64,000 nt of DNA from Ruditapes philippinarum (taxonomy: Eukaryota). The notes under the pieces were generated by a model. It was given only the letters and a program-made list of their open reading frames with translations, ran no database searches and was not told where the DNA came from. The stretch covers positions 1 to 64,000 of the forward strand of contig NW_026863180.1 of assembly GCF_026571515.1 (NCBI RefSeq), written 5' to 3'. The position numbers were made by a program, and so were the translations under genes. This document shows positions 25,142 through 37,859 of this stretch, piece by piece. The number at the start of each line of letters is the position of its first letter. Position 1 is the stretch's first letter.

Positions 25142-26007
25142 ATATATGTAGACATCAACTGAGTTTTGTCACATGGCGGGCTGGAAGTTAAGTTCCATTT
25201 GATATAATTCTAAACTTACTTGTGTGGTGGCTAAATTTCAGATCATTTGCTCATTCCAATTTTAGAACAATGATATTGATTGTGCAAAATTCACAAAATT
25301 CACTCAAAAAGGGCTAAAACTCGCATTATTTATTGGCTATCAATTGTAGTGTAAATATATATCTTTTAATTAGCTTATGACACTCTTTAAATTGAATTTT
25401 ACCCGTTACATTTAATTTCATGTGCGCAAATATACCCTCGTTATTGCAATAAGCTAAATGAAACTTCCATAAAGAAAGATAAACTTTCCATTTATTTAAA
25501 CCATATTTTCATGAATTTGACGATACGTCTTATTAAAATGTACACATTTTTGTAAATATATCTAAGTCGAAAGATAGGTCTATCGATTTTATCCTAGTGG
25601 CCGTTAAATAGTTAAATAAGCCTTGATGTAAGTTGGTTAAAATAGCTTTTGTTGGACCGTATTTGGTACAAAAACGAATATGGTACAAATGTACCATATT
25701 CGGTCGAATATGGTACAAATGTACCATATTCGGACCGAATATGGTACATTTTCGACCGAATATGGTACAAACATTGTACCATATTCGGTTGGAATAAGTT
25801 TTTCTATGCTCGCCAAAACGTATTTGGTACATACCAAAAAAACTCATAAAATGAAAATGGCCTACGTATATGGTACATAAATTATGTATTTCTTAATAAA
25901 TGAAATAGTCTGCCGATGTGTAAACTTTTTTTCAAACTCAAATACATTGTATTAACCTAATATGGGAAGCGACAAAAGTATCATCATCATCATCATCATC
26001 ATCATCA

Positions 26008-26038
<31 letters not shown>

Positions 26039-26108
26039 AACTAGCAGTAACAGAAACAGCTAACCTAACCACACTTTACATGGATTTTGCTGGTTGTGTA
26101 ACTGTTTC

Positions 26109-26296
26109 GCCGGGTAGCTCAGTCGGTTGCGCGTCAGATTGGCACGCAGGCGGCCTGGGTTCGATTCCCGGGCGGGCCAGATACTTTCGTGGAGATTGGT
26201 CACGAAATGATTTCTACGGCCATTCTTCCCCTACCGCTGTTTCAAGTAGGGCAGTTGTCAATTACTGGCGAATGTATCTGCTTAGTACTGGTTACT
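26109..26296 (+). mobile_element. tRNA-derived SINE, 3'-truncated
   Basis: TAGCTCAGTCGG A box and GGTTCGATTCC B box; body nearly identical to 29448-29530. Confidence 0.8.
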
Positions 26297-26607
26297 AAGT
26301 ACTAGTACTCTAAGACTAGAGACGTGCTTGCTCCAGGTAACTCTGTAAAAGTTTGAGGATTATCGCATTTTGGTTATGTTCATAGAGTGTGAACTTGTAA
26401 GGGTAAAGGTAGGCGAGCAAATCCATGAAGCGCGCCAGCGCTTCTTGGAAAATTTGATCGTTTAATACCCCTCGGTATTAATGCTTATATTTTAATACAT
26501 TTTAATAATAATTGGTAGGTTTTGTCCAGATATGATTGCCCCAAGCAAACGTCGTTGCAGGAATGTCGACGTCGCATTCGATTGGTCGAATGACGTCGCG
26601 TCAGCCA

Positions 26608-26916
26608 TATTAATGATTTCGTGCATTGTTTGGGTCAATCTAAAACTTCTGACAAGAAGATATTGCATGAGAAAATCCGAAAAATAAACAAGAAATTGGG
26701 CCGAAAAAATAACTAACGAAATTCATATTTCATGCATTTGCAGTTGTTTTACGATAGAATTTCTTCGATATAATTCAATATCCTTTGGTCAGTAGTTTTA
26801 GATTGACCCAAACAATTCACAAGATCATTAATAGCAATTTTCAAATTTTTAAAAAAAATTTTTTCGAAAGTGTATTTTCACCAAAATCCGATTTAAGAGA
26901 TTTTGAGCTCTTTTAA
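26608..26916. mobile_element. Partial MITE with long TIRs (same family as 31416-31862, opposite orientation)
   Basis: ATTAATGATTTCGTGCATTGTTTGGGTCAATCTAAAACT pairs with AGTTTTAGATTGACCCAAACAATTCACAAGATCATTAAT. Confidence 0.7.
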
Positions 26917-26991
26917 ATGAATATATCTCTCCAAAAATAAGGATGTTTGACTGGCTGCTTTAGACAGGTGTGACTGCATTCCTAAACATTA

Positions 26992-27998
26992 GGCGAAAAG
27001 AAAAAAATTGTCTGGTTCCGGTGACCCGACCCTACCTATTTTTTTCGCCCGACCCTTAACTTTTTTTTATTTGAATACGAAAAAATTGGTCCGATATTTT
27101 ACTCAATATTCAAGAGAATTGTAAAGAACGTTTTTAAAGCGTTCATGTAAACATTCTAAAAATAAAACAAAACTTAATAATTTTAGTTTAAGTTTTGAAT
27201 CTATAATATGTTGTCTTCATTAAGGGAAAGTAAATTTTGAAAATAGAAATACATTGTATGTGTCAATTATTTGAATTCGAAACATTGGATATTCAATCTT
27301 TTTTGGTTGGTAAGCAGATGTGTGCGTTAGTGTTGGTTATTTTCTGGAACAGGAGTTGTTAGCTTTAATATAATGAACTATCAAACCCAAAACCATTTGA
27401 TTTAAAGACTGAAATAGCAGAGTATGAGTTTTAGATGAAACAGTCTTTTATTTACTGGGTTTATTACCAGTCCCCTCTAGATCTTGTGGCAAGGTTCGAA
27501 TCAAAACCTCATATTTTTAAATAAATGTACGAATTTGCACAGCACTAAAGCATTCAACGTAAAGCATTCCCTGCGACTTCTTTTTACGCTGATATTCAGT
27601 CAATTTAAAATGTTCTACAACCCATGATTTTGCCATATAATTGCATAAATACTGTACTAGTCATAGCAAGCACCGAAAATGGTCTCGTTTATAGCGAATT
27701 ATATTTTCAAAATATAACACGTACAGAAAGAAACAATTATTAAACCTATAGGGTTAAATGTGCATAAAACTCCTCCAGCTTGCACACTATGCATGTTTAC
27801 AGTACATAAAAAGCTTAGTGTTGCACGCACAGAAGACTTTAATCACACAAAATATACATTAAAATAACGTTATTATATCACCTTTCACTCAGCATCAGTA
27901 AAAATAAATAAATAAATAAAATAAAAAGAAATGCCGACCTACCCTACCTACTTTTTGGGGGCATGTCACCGGAACCAGACATAATGTTTTATTTGGCC
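26992..27998. mobile_element. PIF/Harbinger-type non-autonomous element
   Basis: GGC...GCC termini, imperfect TIR containing TGTCTGGTTCCGGTGAC, TTA TSD (26989-26991, 27999-28001). Confidence 0.75.
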
Positions 27999-29447
27999 TT
28001 ACTTTGTAAAGTTGATTTGTCGTTCCGACGTCATATTGCTGAGAAGCCGACAAAGCTTTGAAGTTTCCGATTTTTTCTTTGATAACGTGCCGCTTTAAAA
28101 AGGCGGGAATTTTGCACACGAGTCTTACTCAGAAGTCAGTAACCATATTTGACTTGGCGGTCGGCAAGAAAAGTTGTGATTTTCGACTAGAAAGAATTGA
28201 AATCCAAACTTTCTTCAAACTTCAAAAGAATTCTTGACAGTAAGTACTGTACATAATTTTAATTTTCAGTTGTCTTAATATGCATTGATGTTTTAACATG
28301 CATTGATTTTTTATGTTTTATGCCCCCCCCCCCCCCCTCAGAGTGCATTTGCAGTTGTCCGTCCGTCTATCCAATTGTCCGTGGCATTCCTTCCGGGTGC
28401 GTAACTCCTAAACTGCTAAAATATTTAAGCTACAGTCATGAAACTTCATGAAAAATGTTGTCCATCATCAGCTCTCAAGATACATTTCAGCTCACCTGAG
28501 CACAAAGTGATCAAGGTGAGCTATTGTGATGGCAAGTTGTCCATCGTCCGTGCGTGCGTGCGTCCGTACGTGCGTCCGTCAACAATTTCTTCAAACGATT
28601 TCTCCTCCTAACACGCTAAGCCAAATTCAATGAAACTTGGCAGGAATAGTCCTTGCATCAAGCTCTACCAAAGTTGTTCAAAGAATTCCATTTCATGAAG
28701 AACTCTGGTTGTCATGGCAACGAAAAGGCAAATCATAGTGAAATCTTTAAAAATATTCTTGTCCGAAACTGCAAGGCCTTGAGGTTTGATATTTGGTATG
28801 TGACATAATTTTGGTATGTGACATAATTTTGGGGTCCTATACTAAGATTGTTCAAATTATGCCCCTGGGGTAAAAATTGGCACCGTCCCGTGCCTGTGTT
28901 GGGACCCTGTCTCCAACCCGCTGGGGGGGGCCGGAGGTCCAGCACAAATATGGCGGTTTCATATAACACGCCATATGAAGTGGGCCTCATCGAGGGCCCC
29001 CCTCCCAGCAGACCGGAGACAGAGCCCCAAGGCTGATAAGTGACGATGGGATGATGACGATGATGATGATGATGGCACAGAGTGCATCACTAAAACCGTT
29101 CAATCACTGGGGGCTGGAAATGTAACCTTAATGCTTCAACGTTGAGATCCAGCTCCCTTGATGCATAATTCAGTGGAACATAAAATGATGAAATTTACCC
29201 CTGTGTGACGTTAAATCTTATTTTTAAAATTTGAACAACTGCGGTGCTATATACATATTTATAACAAACGGCACCTTCCCAGGACCATGTTAAAAAGAAT
29301 GAGTAACTAATAACATATATACTATATTTACACTATAAAACAAGGGTGATTTTGCCACACAGGGGTAGTGATAAGATCATTGAAGATGAAGACATGGCCA
29401 GCTCTTGTTTCTCATGTTAAATTTAAAACTGACTTGGTCGTTGTTCC

Positions 29448-29640
29448 TTTCTACGGCCATTCTTCCCCTACCGCTGTTTCAAGTAGGGCAGTTGTCAGTT
29501 ACTGGCGAATGTATCTGCTTAGTACTGGTTACCCGCTTACACCAGAGTGTAAGCATGCCCAGGAACGGTGCGTAGGTTAACTGACCGCTGTGATATGACT
29601 GAAATATACTGTTGAAAACGGCGTAAAACCCAAAAAACAA
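29448..29640 (+). mobile_element. 5'-truncated SINE
   Basis: 13-bp TSD TGGTCGTTGTTCC (29435-29447, 29641-29653) and an A-rich tail; same family as 26109-26296. Confidence 0.88.
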
Positions 29641-31415
29641 TGGTCGTTGTTCCCTAGGTAACAGCATGACTTGACCAGAGGTTTGCGGTAGGGTATGTTC
29701 CACTCAGGTCAGTTCTGCATGCCCACCTGCATGTTAATTGTACATGGTGAGCCTGTTCCTTTAAAGTTTGGGGTTCAGGATGCTGTATGGTGGGTTTTTG
29801 GGGGAGGCCGATGCGAGGTTGCCGAGGCACGGAATACCATTCAGTTTTTCATTTTTTTATTTGTTTTATTCCTAGTTTTCCTATTTGGGTTTGTTCGAAA
29901 TTTACGAAATTGGCGTAGGAGTCTGTGTGCTTCCTAAAGTGCCAGACACATATTCCTGGGGGGGGGGGGGCATTTTATAAATGGGGGACACCTCGGCACA
30001 TATATTTAACAGGCCTGTGAGGTGCCTTATAATTAAGGGAGGGACAAGCATGGGGCCACCTGAGCGACAGGTCAGGTGTTCTTACTCCCATTTATAATGT
30101 TTAATATGTCAGAGGACAGAATGCTCTCAAAGAACTTGAATGGGGCCTTTAATGTTAGTGAGTGACTGGCACTGAAGTACATATTAGGAAGCACACAAGG
30201 CTCCTTGAGTAGACACTATGTCTAATAGACATTATTTAAATCTTACGGTATTATCATACCGGTAACCCATGACCAGCGGAGTCGCACAACCGGGACCTGG
30301 ACAGTCCAAGCACACGCAGGGCGGCCCCACTGGCCATAGAATTATGTATTATTTCTATTTAAAACTATTTATTCATGACGTTCTAGTATAACATTATATC
30401 CGCATCCGTTAAAAATCGAAACAGTTCAGAGTTCGAGACCTATTCCATGTATCCGTAGTCCGCAGTACGCATCCGTATACGCATCCGCATCCGCAAGTCG
30501 AATCGCTCAGCGAGCGATTCGTTTGCGGATATGCGGATGCGGACCCTTTTTGCGGACAATTCTAATTACACCTAGTTAATTATTTTCAATTGAAATACAT
30601 CAAAATTGGTATTTTTGTCCCTATTTATTGAATATTTACATAATATACATCTGCATACTTCTACTGTTTCATTTTTGTTAACTTTTCTTCTTGAAAACAA
30701 AATGCACGAACTCCCAAGCCAAACATTGGGCAAGATTTGCCCATGAAAAACAGACATTTATTTTAAAGATTCATAAATAAATTATATACCGACTGGTAAA
30801 GCTTGTCAGACGTTAGCATTTCAAATTGCAATGCTTTTTTAGTTCATTTACGTTCAAATGACTGTGTGGATTTCCATATAACCCAGAAAATAAACGCTAA
30901 TCACTGTAAAATGAAAATTAAAGTAAAAAGCAGCATAAAATAAATGAAAACATACTTGAAATACTTATACTGTAATTAAAGGGTTAAGACAGAGGGCAGC
31001 TTAGACATTTTACTTACAAAAATGATTACGTATGCGGGTACATGGAATATGGCATAACTCTGCGGATACAGTTACTGATACGGGTGGCTACGGATGCGGG
31101 TGCGTATGCGTGTACAAGAAATAGACGGCATTCTCTAGAGGTCTTCTACCAAGGTTGTTCGAATATTGCCCCTGGGTTTAAAATTGGCCCTGCTCTGTCG
31201 ACAGTATTTGGTACAAAAACGCTTAGTTTAACTATATAATTATTATATAGAGAAATTTTAAAAATATATATCTTTTTCTCTAAAACCACTTTGCTCAGAG
31301 CTTTGATATTTGTTATGTGACATTTTCGATTGAACTTTCGACTTTTGATGAATTAAACCTTGACCAAGTGACTTAATTTTGAAGCTTTTGCCTTTATTTT
31401 CCTTACAGTTATTAC

Positions 31416-31862
31416 AGCTCAATCTGATTTTGGTGAAAAATACACTTTCGAAAAAAAATTGTTTCAAAAGTCGCTATTAAAGTATTAATGATTTTGTGAA
31501 TTGTTTTCGGTTAATCTAAAACTACTGACCAAAGGATATTGAATTATATCGAAGAAATTGTATCGTAAAACAACTGAAAATGCATGGAAAATGGATTTCG
31601 CGTTAGATCTACTAACGCGATATTTTCGGCCTATTCCATTCCTATTCAATAAATAGGACAAAAATACCAAATTTTGGTGTATTTTAATTGAAAAATAAAA
31701 AATCTTGTTATTTTTTCGGATTGTATTTGATGTCATGCAATGTCCTCTGGTCAGTATTTTTAGATTAACCCAAACAATTCACAAAATCATTAATAGCGAC
31801 TTTTGGAAACAATTTTTTTCGAAAGTGTATTTTCCACCAAAAATCAGATCGAGCTCCTTTAA
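31416..31862. mobile_element. Long-TIR MITE, Kolobok-like end
   Basis: ~120-bp imperfect TIRs (AGCTCAATCTGATTTTGGTGAAAAATACACTTTCGAAAAAAA...); the right end reads GAGCTCCT-TTAA. Confidence 0.7.
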
Positions 31863-32282
31863 TCTGTAGATTTGAACATTTTAAATTTTATGGAGTTTAT
31901 AGGTCTTTGACCTTCGAACTCTGCCTAGTCGTGACTTCTGGTGAGCGACCTAGGCCCCCAGGGCCCCTTCTTTATATCCCTTCCATCCACGTAGCATTGG
32001 TTTCTACAGACCGTTTGTCCGTTGACCGCCATAAGTTTGCCCGCTATTTTTCCCCTGAATTTGAATTCGGTTGGATTTCAATGAAACTTTACATGAAGTA
32101 CTTGCTACTTTCATTGCGCATATTGCCCGGAAGTTCGGATTGTAAATTTTAGCGGAGCTATCAGACGAGTGATTTTAGCTCAGCTCATGTCGTGAGACAT
32201 TCGTTTTCGACACGCGGTGTTCAATACAAGCTCTATTAACTAATGAAGTATAAATGTATAATAACTTATTATATTATTTCAG

Positions 32283-34881
32283 ATGAAGGAAGCAATTAGG
32301 AGAAAAAGGAAGCAATTAGGGTGCTTGCCCAGGTCGAAGTACGACATTATTGTCAGATGTTTAAACGGATCGTTCGATGTCCCTGTGAAGAAACGGACAC
32401 CTGAAGAGAATAATTGTTTGGCCATGATTAGAAAACGTAAGGACTTCGAGCTTGGTGACCGGGGTTATTTATTGTGTGGAGGAAAGCAAGTCCTTGTGAA
32501 AGAAGATCTTCCTAGATTTGTTGAGAAGATGTTCATGGAAAACAAAGGATGACGAGCAAGGGTTATTTACAACAAACTGAAAGTAAATTACACGGGGTTC
32601 TCGGAACAAGCTATCCTTGAAATACTGTACAATAGCAAGTATTACCATGAGAAGTATCCGAGATTTACAAACAAGCCAACGCCAAAGACAATTACAGAAG
32701 AGGAACCAGGCAAAAGATGGCAGATTGACATAATTAACATGAAAAATCAAAGTGTTAGCTACAAGGGGTCCACATACAGTTATATTCTACAAGTCGTGGA
32801 CGTTTATTCTAGGTACGTTATGCCAAAACCCCTGAAAACGAAGAGTTCGCGTGAAGTTGCAAAGGCATAAGAGGACGTGTTGATGGTTAACCTTGCCCCT
32901 GACATCATCCAATGTGACAACGGACTGGAATTTAAAGGCCCTAGTATGAAACTTTTGTTGAACTAGTACAACATCAAAATGATCAATAGTAGGCCGTATC
33001 ATCCTCAATCACAGGGCAAGTGTGAAAGGTCAAACAGTGTTATAAAGGCCAAGATTCTATTTGCAACAAAAAGTAAACGTGGATTTAACTGGGTCGAAGG
33101 GCTTCAAGATTTAGCCTATGCCATAAACACAAGTTTCAAACGAGTTCTTGGGGGTCTCACGCCCTTTGAAGCCTACTACGGAAGAAGTTATGTTTTTACC
33201 AAAGAACGTCATAGTTCTCGTGAAATAAAGAAAACCATACGGCGAGCAAATAAAAAAGCTTACAGGTCGCTGTTGAAAAACGCAACTTCCCCAAGCAAGT
33301 ACAAAGTAGGAGAGACAGTATTAATTCGCTATCCCTTTCGAAAATCCAGGGTGCCAACCAAAAGATATGTTATCGAAGGCAAGGTAGAAAAAGTAAAACG
33401 AAATGGTGTTTATATCGTGTCATTTCAAGTACCGAACAAACCGAACTTGGATTCGTAAGCAAATCGGTTGGGGTCGAAAACATGACTAGCCTAACTGTTG
33501 CGTTAGAGAAACAACGAAAAATTAAAAAACATTTATTAAAACAGAACCGCTCAGAGAAACAAAATCACAGAACTAAGTACTATCATGTTTTAACACACCA
33601 TGAAAATCTGCAGTTGTTGGATGGGGTGAATATTGCCATGGACCCAAATCCGGATGGAAATTGTCAATTTGCTGCTATATCGCATCAACTTGGTAAAATT
33701 GGTATATACAAAGACGTAGATGCTTTACGTAAGGAAGCAGTCCATCACATTGTAGAAAACAGATATTTCTATGAAACTTTTGTCTATGATGAAACATTTG
33801 ATGAATACGTTAAGAATATGTCTAAGAATGGGACATACGGCGACAACCTCACGCTCATTGCACTTATGAGAGAATATAATTTGCAGTGCCTGGTAGTTTC
33901 TACCCGAGGACTAGAACACTCATCAATTGTGTCAGCAGATGGAAAGTTCGATGGTGATGTTGGAACAATTGCATTGGGGTATTTCCCAGAAGGATTTGGC
34001 ATGCATTACGTTAGTATCCGTATCAATCAACGCGTGTACAAGGACATAATATCACGCTTAGAACAGGCGTATGAGAACGGTGACTCTGGCGACAGCGCTG
34101 CGTCTGGCGACAACGCTGCGTCTGGCGACAACGGTGACTCTGGCGACAACGGTGACTCCGGCGACACCGCTGCGTCTGGCGACAACACTGCATCTGGCGA
34201 CAACGATGACTCTGGCGACAACGATGACTCTGGCGACAACGCTGCGTCTGGCGACAACGGTGACTCTGGCGACAACGGTGACTCCGGCGACAACGGTGAC
34301 TCTGGCGACAACGGTGACTCCGGCGACAACGGTGACTCCGGCGACAACGGTGACTCCGGCGACAACGGTGACTCCGGCGACAACGGTGACTCCGGCGACA
34401 ACGGTGACTCCGGCGACAACGGTGACTCTGGCGACAACGGTGACGTCTCTGTGTGTTCAGCCCTGAAAGAGCTTCAAGATATGATAAACAATAGGAGGGC
34501 ACAGAGGCGAACGACTTTTCCATTTCTGATGTTACCACTTCACATTCAAGTTGAAATTTTAAAGTTCTGCATACAATCAAACCCGTCAATCCAGTTTGTG
34601 TTGGCGAAGGTCGGCAAACCCTTTAGAGATTTAATAAGGTCAATGAGTTTGCAAACACCTAGAATTTACATTCGGCTGGATATTGGACTAGATACTAGTA
34701 ACAGAAATCCTGTTAGCGTTCGTTTCCTATTAACAAGAGCGGGCAGAAACAGCGGTCTTATTTCGGCAATAAAAGAAATCATCAAGGGGCCAAAATGGGC
34801 AAACGCATGGCTGCGTTTGCGCGTGTTAGTGGAATCGGTTGGTATGATATCATAGATGTCATGTACAGACATTACAGGTGA
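32283..34881 (+). pseudogene. Disrupted transposase: DDE integrase (KRBA2/SCAND3/Ginger-like) + SH3-like region + OTU cysteine protease + (GDNGDS)n + F-box-like motif + Trp-rich C-terminus
   Basis: One frame from 32283 to 33458 with three premature stops (32550, ~32868, ~32964) encodes WQIDIINM, QCDNGLEF and SRPYHPQSQGKCERSN. A frameshift at ~33455-33470 leads into the 33482 ORF with OTU motifs PDGNCQFAAI and HYVS, then FLMLPLHIQVEILKFC...LAKVGKPFRDLI. A probable terminal frameshift gives GWYDIIDVMYRHYR* (34881). A splice acceptor directly precedes 32283. Confidence 0.88.
34076..34445 (+). repeat. 18-bp coding minisatellite (~20 units) encoding GDNGDS
   Basis: Unit AACGGTGACTCYGGCGAC, in frame within the OTU ORF. 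Confidence 0.95.
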
Positions 34882-35214
34882 AATATACATGTATATCGGT
34901 GTTTGGAAACCTGTTATGTTATTTTTGTGATTGATGATTATGTTCTTCTACCGGAAATTTGTTGTCATTTGCTCATTTAATGGTAACTTTTTACGAAGCA
35001 CATTTGGGATATTTTGGCTGCTACTAAAATGAATGTATATATGTATATTATGTCTGGTCAAAATGCTACAGTTGGATTAAAATTTAAATGCTGTTCTATG
35101 TTCTTCAATATTACTTTGAAAAATCCTGTCAGTATACCAATAAATGAAAAAAGTACAAGTTTGTTGAATCTCTTGAATGAAACAAATTATAAAATACAAA
35201 ATGTAAAATGAATA

Positions 35215-36518
35215 TGTGATGATGATGATGATGACAAAACGTTTTCGATGATGATGATGTTAAAAAAATTGTGATGATGGTGGTGGTGATGATGATGACA
35301 GTGGTTATGATGATTGGGGTTTGATGATTGTGAGGATGATGATGATAATGATGATGATGATGATGATAAAAACGTTTTGGGATGATGATGACAGCGATGT
35401 TTATCGGACGATGATGATGGTTATAATGATGATGATAAGATTTTAGATGATGATGACGGCGATGTTTATCGGCCGACGATGATGATAATGATGATGATGA
35501 TAACAAAATATTTGTGATGATGATGATGGCGATGTTTATTGGCCGATGATGATGATGATATTCTCATCGTCGTCATCATCATCACAACATCCTCATTATC
35601 GACCGAAAACATCGCTGTCATTATCATCACAAAAAAAACTTTTGTGATCACCATTACGATCATGATAATGGATATGATGATGTTGGTTTTGATGGTGATG
35701 ATGATGGTGGTGTTGGGGAAGATAACAACGATGATGATCATTGGGGTGTTGATAATTGATGTGATGATGATGATGATGATGATAACAAACGTATTTGGAT
35801 GATTATGACAGCGATGTTTATCAGTCGATGATGATTATTATAATGATGATGATTATGATGACAAATGTGTTTTGATGATGCTGACGGCGATTTTTATCGG
35901 TAGATTATGATGATGATGATGTGCTGACCGTCGTTATCATCATTACAAAACTTTTGTCATCATCATCACCATCGACCGAAAAACATCGCAGTTATCATCA
36001 TCACATTTTTNNNNNNNNNNNNNNNNNNNNNNNNNNNNNNNNNNNNNNNNNNNNNNNNNNNNNNNNNNNNNNNNNNNNNNNNNNNNNNNNNNNNNNNNNN
36101 NNNNNNNNNNNNNNNNNNNNNNNNNNNNNNNNNNNNNNNGATGACGGTAATTTGATCGTCGTCATCATCATCAAAACTTTTGTCATCATCATGACGATGA
36201 TGATGATAATGGCGTTAATGGTGACGATGATGATGATGGTGTTAATGGTGACGATGATGATGTAATTGATGATGATGACAATGGTGATGATGATTGGGGT
36301 TTGATGATTGTGATGATGATAACTGCGATGTTTATCGGCCGATGTAATGATTATAATGATGATGATGAAAAAAGTTTTTTATTATGTTGACGCCAATGAT
36401 TACCGGCCGCCGATGATGATGATTATGATGATGATGATGATGATGCTGATGATGATGATGATGATGACGATGATGATTATTTTCATGATGGTATTGATGA
36501 CGTTGATGCAAATTGTAG

Positions 36519-36551
<33 letters not shown>

Positions 36552-36673
36552 CGATGACGAAGATGATGGTGATGATGATGATGATGATGATGAGAGGACG
36601 ATGATGATTATTTTCATGATGGTATTGATGACGTTGATGCAAATTGTAGTTATGATGATGATTATGATGATGG

Positions 36674-36719
<46 letters not shown>

Positions 36720-36770
36720 AATGATGATGATGGTGATGATGATGAGATAACGATGATGATGACGATGATG
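35215..36770. repeat. (ATG/CAT)n low-complexity tract with internal inversions; includes the assembly gap 36011-36139
   Basis: GATGATGAT runs with recurring GCGATGTTTATCGGYCGA motifs; inverted CATCAT blocks at ~35560-35660 and ~35930-36190. Confidence 0.9.
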
Positions 36771-37859
36771 AGTGTGTACCAATTTCGGAACGAATGTGGT
36801 ACATTTTTCATCCGAATATGGTACAAGTTTGTACCATATTTGGTCAGGCATTTTATCCCAAAACTGCAGATACGTATATGGTACAATTAGACAGTTGTAC
36901 CATATTCGGCCGAATATGGTACAAATTTGTACCATATTCGTTTTTGTACCAAATACGGTCCGACATAGCTTTACACCTCTTGTAAATTAATTATAACAAA
37001 AGCAATGTGGCGCATATTTGCGTGATTTTGTAATTTCTAATATTCAAGGTCGTTCATCATCTAGACAATTGAAAAATGTTTCAGCCACCACAGAATAATG
37101 GTTGTTTAGTCTTGTGTATTCTTCAAGCTGTACAATCTTATTATAAAAAGGAAATAAAAGTAAAAATTCTTATATGTCTATTCTTATCCAGCTCATGGGT
37201 CACAAACGTGTCTGTTTAAACGTTCATTTTATCAACAATTTATTCATAACTTTTATTTGATATTACAGACAATTTTTTGCTACATATTTGTAAAAAAAAA
37301 ACAGAACAGTTCGTCCTCAAAATCATTCGGACATTATGCAATTCGCACCAATATTTAAATGGACGTGTTCTCGGCGCAACGGAGATGTTTTTCTTTACGT
37401 CTGTCTTTCTCTTGAATTTTGTTGCGACAAAGATTGAAAAGTCTGATCGAAGCAAAATTTATTGGATAACAAGTGAAATGAAATGGTCGGTATACTTAAA
37501 GACAAACATTTTAGAATTTCAGACATGGCATAACTTTGTACATTTATGCATTAGGTTCTACTTTTTCACAAAAATATGCAACTAAATTATTAAACAACGA
37601 GCACATACCATGAGCATGAAGAAAAGTAATCAATGCTTTGGATATCCAACCTTAATAGAAAACATGTATTTTGTACATCACCTGTGACTGTTCACATCAT
37701 TTGGCGGCGTCTTTGATGTGCAGCATCGACATTTCACTTGTTTCAAATAAGATATTGGAAAATGTATTGCACACAATTGATTTCATTGCGGTATAATCAG
37801 TATAACTCTGATAATGGCGTATCTTTTCTAACACTAGTAAACGAGTTTGTGGTGGTGGT

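Follow-up and report, generated by a model that had tools for sequence, protein, structure and literature searches.

Among the closest described systems to the element considered here are the Ginger transposons of Bao, Kapitonov and Jurka (2010; PMC2836005). There, Ginger1 has 4-bp CCGG target-site duplications (TSDs), YPYY, H2C2 and GPY/F motifs and OTU/Ulp1 domains. Ginger2 has 4-bp TSDs (5 bp in TDD-4/5), an AT-rich RTATAY target, H2C2 before the DDE core, and terminal inverted repeats (TIRs) of about 45–300 bp that start TGTNR. The Ginger2 TSD is still given as 4 or 5 bp in PMC10045372, which lists Ginger2-2_CySi. PMC6839031 gives 6 bp for Ginger2, citing the 2010 paper, in whose text the duplication is 4 bp inside a 6-bp target; the 6-bp figure is treated here as a misreading. 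One insect Ginger2 is reported to use TATA targets and to have likely been transferred horizontally (PMC3845634). Here, we analyse an integrase-type transposon in the window, a stretch of 64,000 nucleotides from Ruditapes philippinarum (contig NW_026863180.1, positions 1 to 64,000). It is probably a defective copy of Ginger2-2_CySi, a TGT…ACA DNA transposon whose family makes mostly 6-bp TSDs, and the 7-bp duplication that flanks it likely arose when one end joined one base off register.

The element extends from 25650 (TGTT) to 36965 (GACA), a length of 11,316 bp. TAGCTTT stands at 25643–25649 and again at 36966–36972, directly adjoining both ends; after it the left end reads TGTTGGACC…, and the right end …GGTCCGACA stops at 36965. 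The TIRs are 41 bp long with one mismatch, at position 4. An earlier description of this DNA from its letters alone (the sequence-only reading) had reported TGT…ACA TIRs 11.3 kb apart with TAGCTTT abutting both, and these ends and both 7-mers are present as described. A match of 7 bp between the flanks would occur by chance with a probability of about 1.3e-4, computed from flank composition. The idea that TAGCTTT is itself part of the element end, so that the TIR extends into it, is ruled out, because the flanks are direct rather than inverted and vary between copies.

An empty allele, in which a single TAGCTTT is followed by the right flank, was found in contigs of four of the five contig runs (X1, X3, X6 and X10, from four samples). 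The empty site sought in another haplotype therefore exists, and with an exact 7-mer on both sides of the element the 7-bp TSD proposed for this locus is upheld. In the fifth run, X2, a contig over the left junction equals the window at 25450–25677, with 0 differences, 0 gaps and a depth of 9.7; the left junction alone was looked at in reads, and this contig enters the TIR by 28 nt only, below the 31-nt bridging threshold. X2 may be the source individual. Flank depth in the raw-read runs X21, X22 and X24 is at most 2 per strand, too shallow to inform on the junction. The element is real, bounded at 25650–36965 and polymorphic today. A 13-bp stretch at window positions 36984–36996, 11 bp right of the duplication, is absent in all four empty alleles seen, and this difference is probably a haplotype indel.

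The empty allele also bears on whether the two TIRs come from independent insertions whose flanks match by chance. An internal TIR remnant at 31196–31221 does speak of more than two ends in the history of the element, but the empty allele joins both flanks in four samples and so refutes independent insertions, for which we see practically no chance. The left-right pairing TGTT/TGTC is also that of most other copies, and a second long copy in genome G000, C7707, is colinear with window 25707–36973. C7707 is 98% identical to the window in two long segments to 36010 and 85% identical in the GAT-rich end; its left terminus is missing, hence it gives no TSD.

A search of G000 with a 27-nt TIR pattern gave 127 exact matches, from which 52 paired insertions, the window included, were tallied. 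Exact 6-bp duplications flank 41 of the 52, five have exact 5-bp duplications and two have exact 7-bp duplications (the window and L073); none is of 4 bp. Of the remaining four, two sites lack a duplication, one has a mismatched 6-bp duplication and one shows a 1-bp deletion. L066 and L070 are one site assembled twice. The targets form a palindrome, A-T-A-[N A G C T N]-T-A-T, whose two central bases are G then C in 61/82 symmetrised sites. A sister family (TIR TGTWAGGCC…, 172 matches, long copies of 14–16 kb), with 49% protein identity over 603 residues, has 33 six-bp TSDs, one of seven, one of six with a mismatch and three absent among 38 insertions examined; its central bases are G then C in 58/60 symmetrised sites. 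A third family (35% protein identity, TIR TGTTACGGC…, 52 matches), whose TIRs were shown to flank the integrase, has a CG-centred target, and its 16 insertions, two of them possibly one site, comprise 11 of six, two of six with a mismatch and three of five. All three families start TGT, and pooled they give exact 6-bp duplications in 85/106 insertions, five in 8/106 and seven in 3/106. One copy, L042 (G000:C7193:216417–219156), is nested: flanked by a 6-bp duplication, it lies in the right subterminal part of another copy of its own family.

In the sequence-only reading, a 7-bp TSD would point to a distinct lineage with a different intasome geometry. That the transposase of such a lineage normally makes 7-bp TSDs is refuted by the copy tally and is left with a negligible probability: the exact 7-mer at this locus, backed by the empty allele and the short-read contig, favours it, but 7 bp occurs in only 2/52 insertions of the family and 3/106 pooled, six is the rule (41/52; 85/106), and the 7-mer itself sits in the GC-centred 6-bp register. 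The prospect that other copies might carry 4–5-bp TSDs was borne out for 5 bp, in five of 52, not for 4 bp, and most are 6 bp. The 7-bp intasome claim falls, and what remains is a 6-bp-stagger clade outside the published Ginger2 definition; the 6-bp stagger of the family lies inside the range of 4–6 bp given for retroviral integrases in PMC10045372. The notion of a distinct lineage stands in so far as these elements differ from canonical Ginger1 and Ginger2, and fails in that 7 bp is not a trait of the lineage.

The origin of the extra base can be approached through the odd-length duplications. All three 7-mers are NAGCTN plus one base. When random one-base duplications were simulated in 68 six-bp contexts, 12–14% gave a perfect 7-mer and 61–68% an imperfect site; the one-base insertions observed are three perfect 7-mers and no imperfect site (P ~0.003–0.006). 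The 7-mer is therefore likelier to stem from a one-base shift at integration. The alternative is an ordinary 6-bp TSD (TAGCTT), to whose left T run a T was later added by replication slippage or assembly error, the right T being there by chance. It draws on the junction being a T run, on T being the commonest base after the hexamer (38/82) and on an indel rate between copies of 0.0023 per bp. We nevertheless think it improbable. The X2 short-read contig, whose reach into the TIR is limited to 28 nt, matches the junction gap-free and so speaks against an assembly error; random one-base duplication predicts four to six imperfect sites per perfect 7-mer, and no imperfect one was observed; and perfect 5-mers exceed imperfect deletions by 5 to 1 in the window family. 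GingerRoot elements also have a minority of 7-bp TSDs (5/77; PMC6839031).

Elements of this family behave like cut-and-paste transposons of the integrase type, with a stagger of 6 bp. From what is known of the family of enzymes, a DD35E integrase-type transposase would bind the TIRs and the subterminal repeats and would free CA-3′ ends. These ends would attack the GC-centred palindromic target at two phosphodiesters 6 bp apart, repair of the gaps would leave a 6-bp duplication, and a one-base shift of one end would yield the duplications of 5 bp (8/106) or 7 bp (3/106). Either mobilisation by an intact sister such as C7707 or decay after it is the probable history of the window copy. Its parts are these:

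25643..25649, no strand: left TSD TAGCTTT, the family 6-bp register TAGCTT plus one T (window sequence, copy tally, empty allele)
25650..25690, + strand: left TIR, 41 bp, starting TGTT, with short subterminal repeats to ~25790
25790..31190, no strand: 5′ region with no open reading frame (ORF) >119 aa, internal repeats included; ~98% identity in C7707
31196..31221, + strand: 26-bp internal left-TIR remnant with a target-like hexamer, CTGCTC, just before it; also in C7707 and C12476
32283..33500, + strand: integrase part of the transposase, with a helical N-terminal region without HHCC residues, the DD35E core and a predicted beta-strand SH3-like C-terminal region
33647..34010, + strand: OTU-like cysteine protease domain (PF02338, E 5e-12), with a Cys motif at 33650 and a His motif at 33998
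34073..34444, + strand: 18-bp tandem repeat coding for a low-complexity Gly/Asp/Ser linker
34517..34855, + strand: F-box-like motif (weak call) and conserved C-terminal domain of no known family
35200..36770, no strand: (GAT)n-rich low-complexity tract, common to non-autonomous copies; N at 36011–36139
36925..36965, − strand: right TIR, 41 bp, ending GACA, with subterminal repeats from ~36774
36966..36972, no strand: right TSD TAGCTTT

The ~98% identity of 25790–31190 in C7707 marks this region as DNA of the element itself and not as a later insertion at the locus. Among shorter copies, the left end is common to 40/40 tested and the 36400–36650 bin is present in 38/40. The internal TIR remnant suggests, speculatively, that a 5.8-kb ancestor gained 5.5 kb of upstream DNA through a switch to an outer end. 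At window 26100–26300 and 29448–29532 there are two copies of an 85-bp repeat, the first after a tRNA-like head; they are probably fragments of short interspersed elements.

In the window copy the transposase ORF begins at 32283, but stops at 32550, 32868 and 32964 and a frameshift shortly before 33456 interrupt it. In C7707 the frame is open over 712 codons, and in the sister family a frame of 829 codons is complete. The DD35E residues are D149 (32727), D212 (32916) and E248 (33024). A model of the integrase (pLDDT 76.7) finds its best structural match in PFV integrase (E 1.5e-17), and other retroviral integrases also match; the description of a TIR transposon with a retroviral-like DDE integrase is supported. 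The domain order is integrase (rve), predicted SH3-like region, OTU, low-complexity linker, and last an F-box-like motif together with a conserved tail of 100 residues. The signal for an F-box is weak: one of 11 proteins scanned gives Pfam E 0.009, which is below cut-off, and Atlas gives 0.90. The C-terminal domain, modelled at pLDDT 79.5, gave no match in a Foldseek search of the PDB at E 0.001. One long ORF system only is present, and no polymerase, ATPase or capsid ORF was found in the element.

Relatives of the protein are numerous, each of the 150 best clusters at 50% identity exceeding 200 bits; the named relatives belong to Dreissena, Mya, Ruditapes, Saccostrea, Sinanodonta, Oculina and Montipora. 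An HHCC pattern occurs in one of the 157 proteins that span the N-terminus, and its sole carrier, P0029, lies outside the clade; YPYY occurs in 0/157, and GPY/F in 1/252, a protein of 3490 aa. Judged by these patterns, HHCC, YPYY and GPY/F are absent from the clade. The clade, which consists of elements from aquatic animals, has lost the HHCC zinc ligands, and its predicted OTU and F-box-like domains would target the ubiquitin system of the host.

The 114-residue catalytic core of intact C7707 equals that of Ginger2-2_CySi at 114/114 residues, in a by-eye comparison with supplement DataS3 of PMC10045372; by the same comparison the sister-family core is identical to Ginger2-1_CySi, and Ginger2-2_CGi matches P0010. 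Because the core agrees residue for residue, the window family is, at the protein level, already catalogued in Repbase as Ginger2-2_CySi. In Repbase naming, CySi stands for Cyclina sinensis. The family fails the 2010 definition of Ginger2 in TSD length, AT-rich target and HHCC finger; its right TGTCG and left TGTTG fit TGTNR, and 41 bp is slightly below the range of 45–300 bp. Clade motifs are borne by six of the 24 Ginger2 entries in the set of PMC10045372 (Ginger2-1/2_CySi, Ginger2-1/2/3_CGi and Ginger2-2_TeGr). A quarter of the Ginger2 entries in this 2023 reference set thus break the published definition in TSD length, target and zinc finger, and the superfamily therefore needs splitting or redefinition. 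No account of a 6-bp, OTU-bearing Ginger2 clade was found in the literature searched, and the text consulted of PMC3575427, PMC10871703, PMC3845634, PMC10294476 and PMC8905726 describes no 6-bp Ginger2 clade; the texts of the Repbase entries and the alignment files of Bao 2010, outside that search, may bear on novelty.

The integrase cores were placed in a main tree (LG+G4, 75 chosen rows) and in a quick tree of 197 cores thinned to 109 by an 80% identity filter, with 15 bacterial rows dropped. The references are elements anchored by their own ends, not published Ginger or Polinton sequences: L218 (TGT ends, TATA duplication), L221 (5 bp), C3378 (adjoining a Pox_A32 ATPase), the Ginger1-like C8464, and L427/L436 (TATGG ends, 6 bp; two of 20 loci gave ends). 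The clade is monophyletic, with 22 rows at 100/99 in the main tree and 37 rows at SH-aLRT 98 in the quick tree. In the main tree it stands beside 14 Ginger2-like rows as their sister (82/95) rather than within them. It lies far from IS3EU and from Gypsy/Ginger1; the Ginger1-like element from G000 groups with Gypsy, apart from the clade, and the G000 elements with TATGG…CCATA ends and 6-bp TSDs form their own long branch at 100/100. Of the integrase phylogeny proposed in the sequence-only reading, separation from Gypsy and Ginger1 is wide, whereas kinship with Ginger2 is weak (82/95) and union with Polintons is not rejected.

Descent from a Polinton/Maverick-type integrase, with the clade a simple transposon rather than a sister of Ginger2, has accordingly been weighed. 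Both have 6-bp duplications and no HHCC (PMC10045372, section 3.3), the D-V-F/Y-S-R of the clade core resembles Polinton D-V-F-S-K while most classic Ginger2 read D-H-x-T/S-K, the grouping has a p-AU of 0.18, and Ginger2 tends to group with Polintons in the 2010 account (PMC2836005). This descent is nonetheless unlikely. The element ends in TGT…ACA, not in the AG termini of Polintons (PMC6839031), and lacks their polymerase B, ATPase and capsid genes. The best tree places the clade with Ginger2-like elements, and both trees put Polintons on a separate branch. An x-SQG motif before the catalytic E is common to the clade and Ginger2 but absent in the Polinton references, and the family is filed under Ginger2 in Repbase.

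With classic Ginger2/TDD, the nearest group in the best tree, the clade also has in common TGT termini, short TIRs, an integrase-type DDE core and the lack of YPYY and GPY/F. It differs in its 6-bp TSD (41/52, none of 4) against 4 bp (5 in TDD), its GC-centred target against RTATAY, its lack of H2C2 residues and its predicted OTU and F-box-like tail, and its length of 11–16 kb against 2.7–6.7 kb. With Ginger1 it has in common TGT termini, a C-terminal OTU domain and a GC-containing target, whereas the 4-bp CCGG/CCGT TSDs and the YPYY, H2C2 and GPY/F motifs of Ginger1 are absent here. IS3EU/GingerRoot elements likewise have 6-bp GC-rich TSDs, now and then of 7 bp, lack HHCC, live in aquatic animals and are large, with passenger DNA (PMC6839031, PMC10045372). 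Their ends are for the most part TA…TA, now and again TG…CA, in contrast to TGT here, and the IS3EU transposase (PF24764) is far off on a branch of its own at 100/100; at E 0.5, PF24764 gave no match in the intact integrase.

Dreissena and Mya carry the transposase at 98–99.8% identity: the intact protein agrees with Dreissena polymorpha KAH3783153 at 426/427 residues and with Mya arenaria XP_052775996 at 300/307. G000, whose host is taken to be a bivalve, can be at most one of the Dreissena, Mya and CySi hosts, and the family therefore occurs nearly unchanged in at least three bivalve families. As such near-identity is hard to square with vertical descent, the family has likely moved horizontally among bivalves, to judge from protein comparison.

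Several points weigh against the account given here of a 6-bp, Ginger2-related family with a one-base shift at this locus. With several SNPs and a 13-bp indel, the empty alleles represent another haplotype, not the direct progenitor. TSD lengths come from one genome, and a scan for ends and TSDs around the relatives at C2815, C2612, C10304, C2370 and C6798 and at 20 metagenome loci yielded no complete clade element, and none came from other species. At this locus the sequence left by a 7-bp stagger is identical to that left by a 6-bp stagger and a subsequent one-base slip; every 7-mer is readable as a homopolymer extension, and the support for a shift is statistical, from three events. The Ginger2 sister relationship is unstarred, with an unconverged bootstrap, and is not recovered in the quick tree, and the AU test leaves room for Polinton integrases. 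Horizontal transfer is argued from protein identity.

The 6-bp, GC-targeting, HHCC-less elements with OTU and F-box-like domains that are now filed in Ginger2 may, at somewhat less than an even chance, be a superfamily-level lineage of their own: large, carrying passenger DNA, active now and moving horizontally between bivalve orders; their ubiquitin-editing tail would shield the transposase or alter host silencing. If so, they and classic Ginger2 would provide a natural 6-bp versus 4-bp pair for study of how integrase-type enzymes set the stagger. From the 106 natural insertions, both the stagger spectrum and the palindromic target of an integrase-type transposase can be read, and intact copies exist for biochemistry. 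Horizontal transfers are already known in bivalves, and for DNA elements they have been called poorly explored (PMC10294476); the almost unchanged transposases of Dreissena (freshwater), Mya (marine) and the CySi host would make a DNA transposon one more case.

Some further observations concern relatives of the element in G000. At least five sister-family copies reach 14–16 kb (C5617, C11527, C15507, C5455 and C7860); three sister copies examined closely contain nested internal inverted repeats ~10 kb and ~9 kb apart, and one long copy has a complete open frame. The sister family looks recently active. At C2815 (L092, L093) a 1120-codon relative, 44% identical in the searched part, lies between inverted arrays of a ~277-bp tandem repeat that span several kb; TGT…ACA ends were not found for it. 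The Ginger1-like element at C8464 (L363, L364) has perfect TGTAACG TIRs 10.5 kb apart, a GPF motif and OTU, and its left flank CCGG is unmatched on the right.

A hydrophobic, signal-peptide-like N-terminal extension is present in 42 of the 117 (redundant) clade proteins with a called start (P0019, P0022, P0025, P0026, P0034, P0040 and others), and a few such extensions resemble translated splice-acceptor tracts. The window family is without this extension, but an acceptor-like TTTTCAG precedes its ATG; a search of 31190–32270 for an upstream signal-peptide exon gave no in-frame candidate with the donor patterns tried. The IS3EU transposases of G000 (L427, L431, L432, L436 and L437) also start with signal-peptide-like hydrophobic stretches, despite their distant kinship to the clade.

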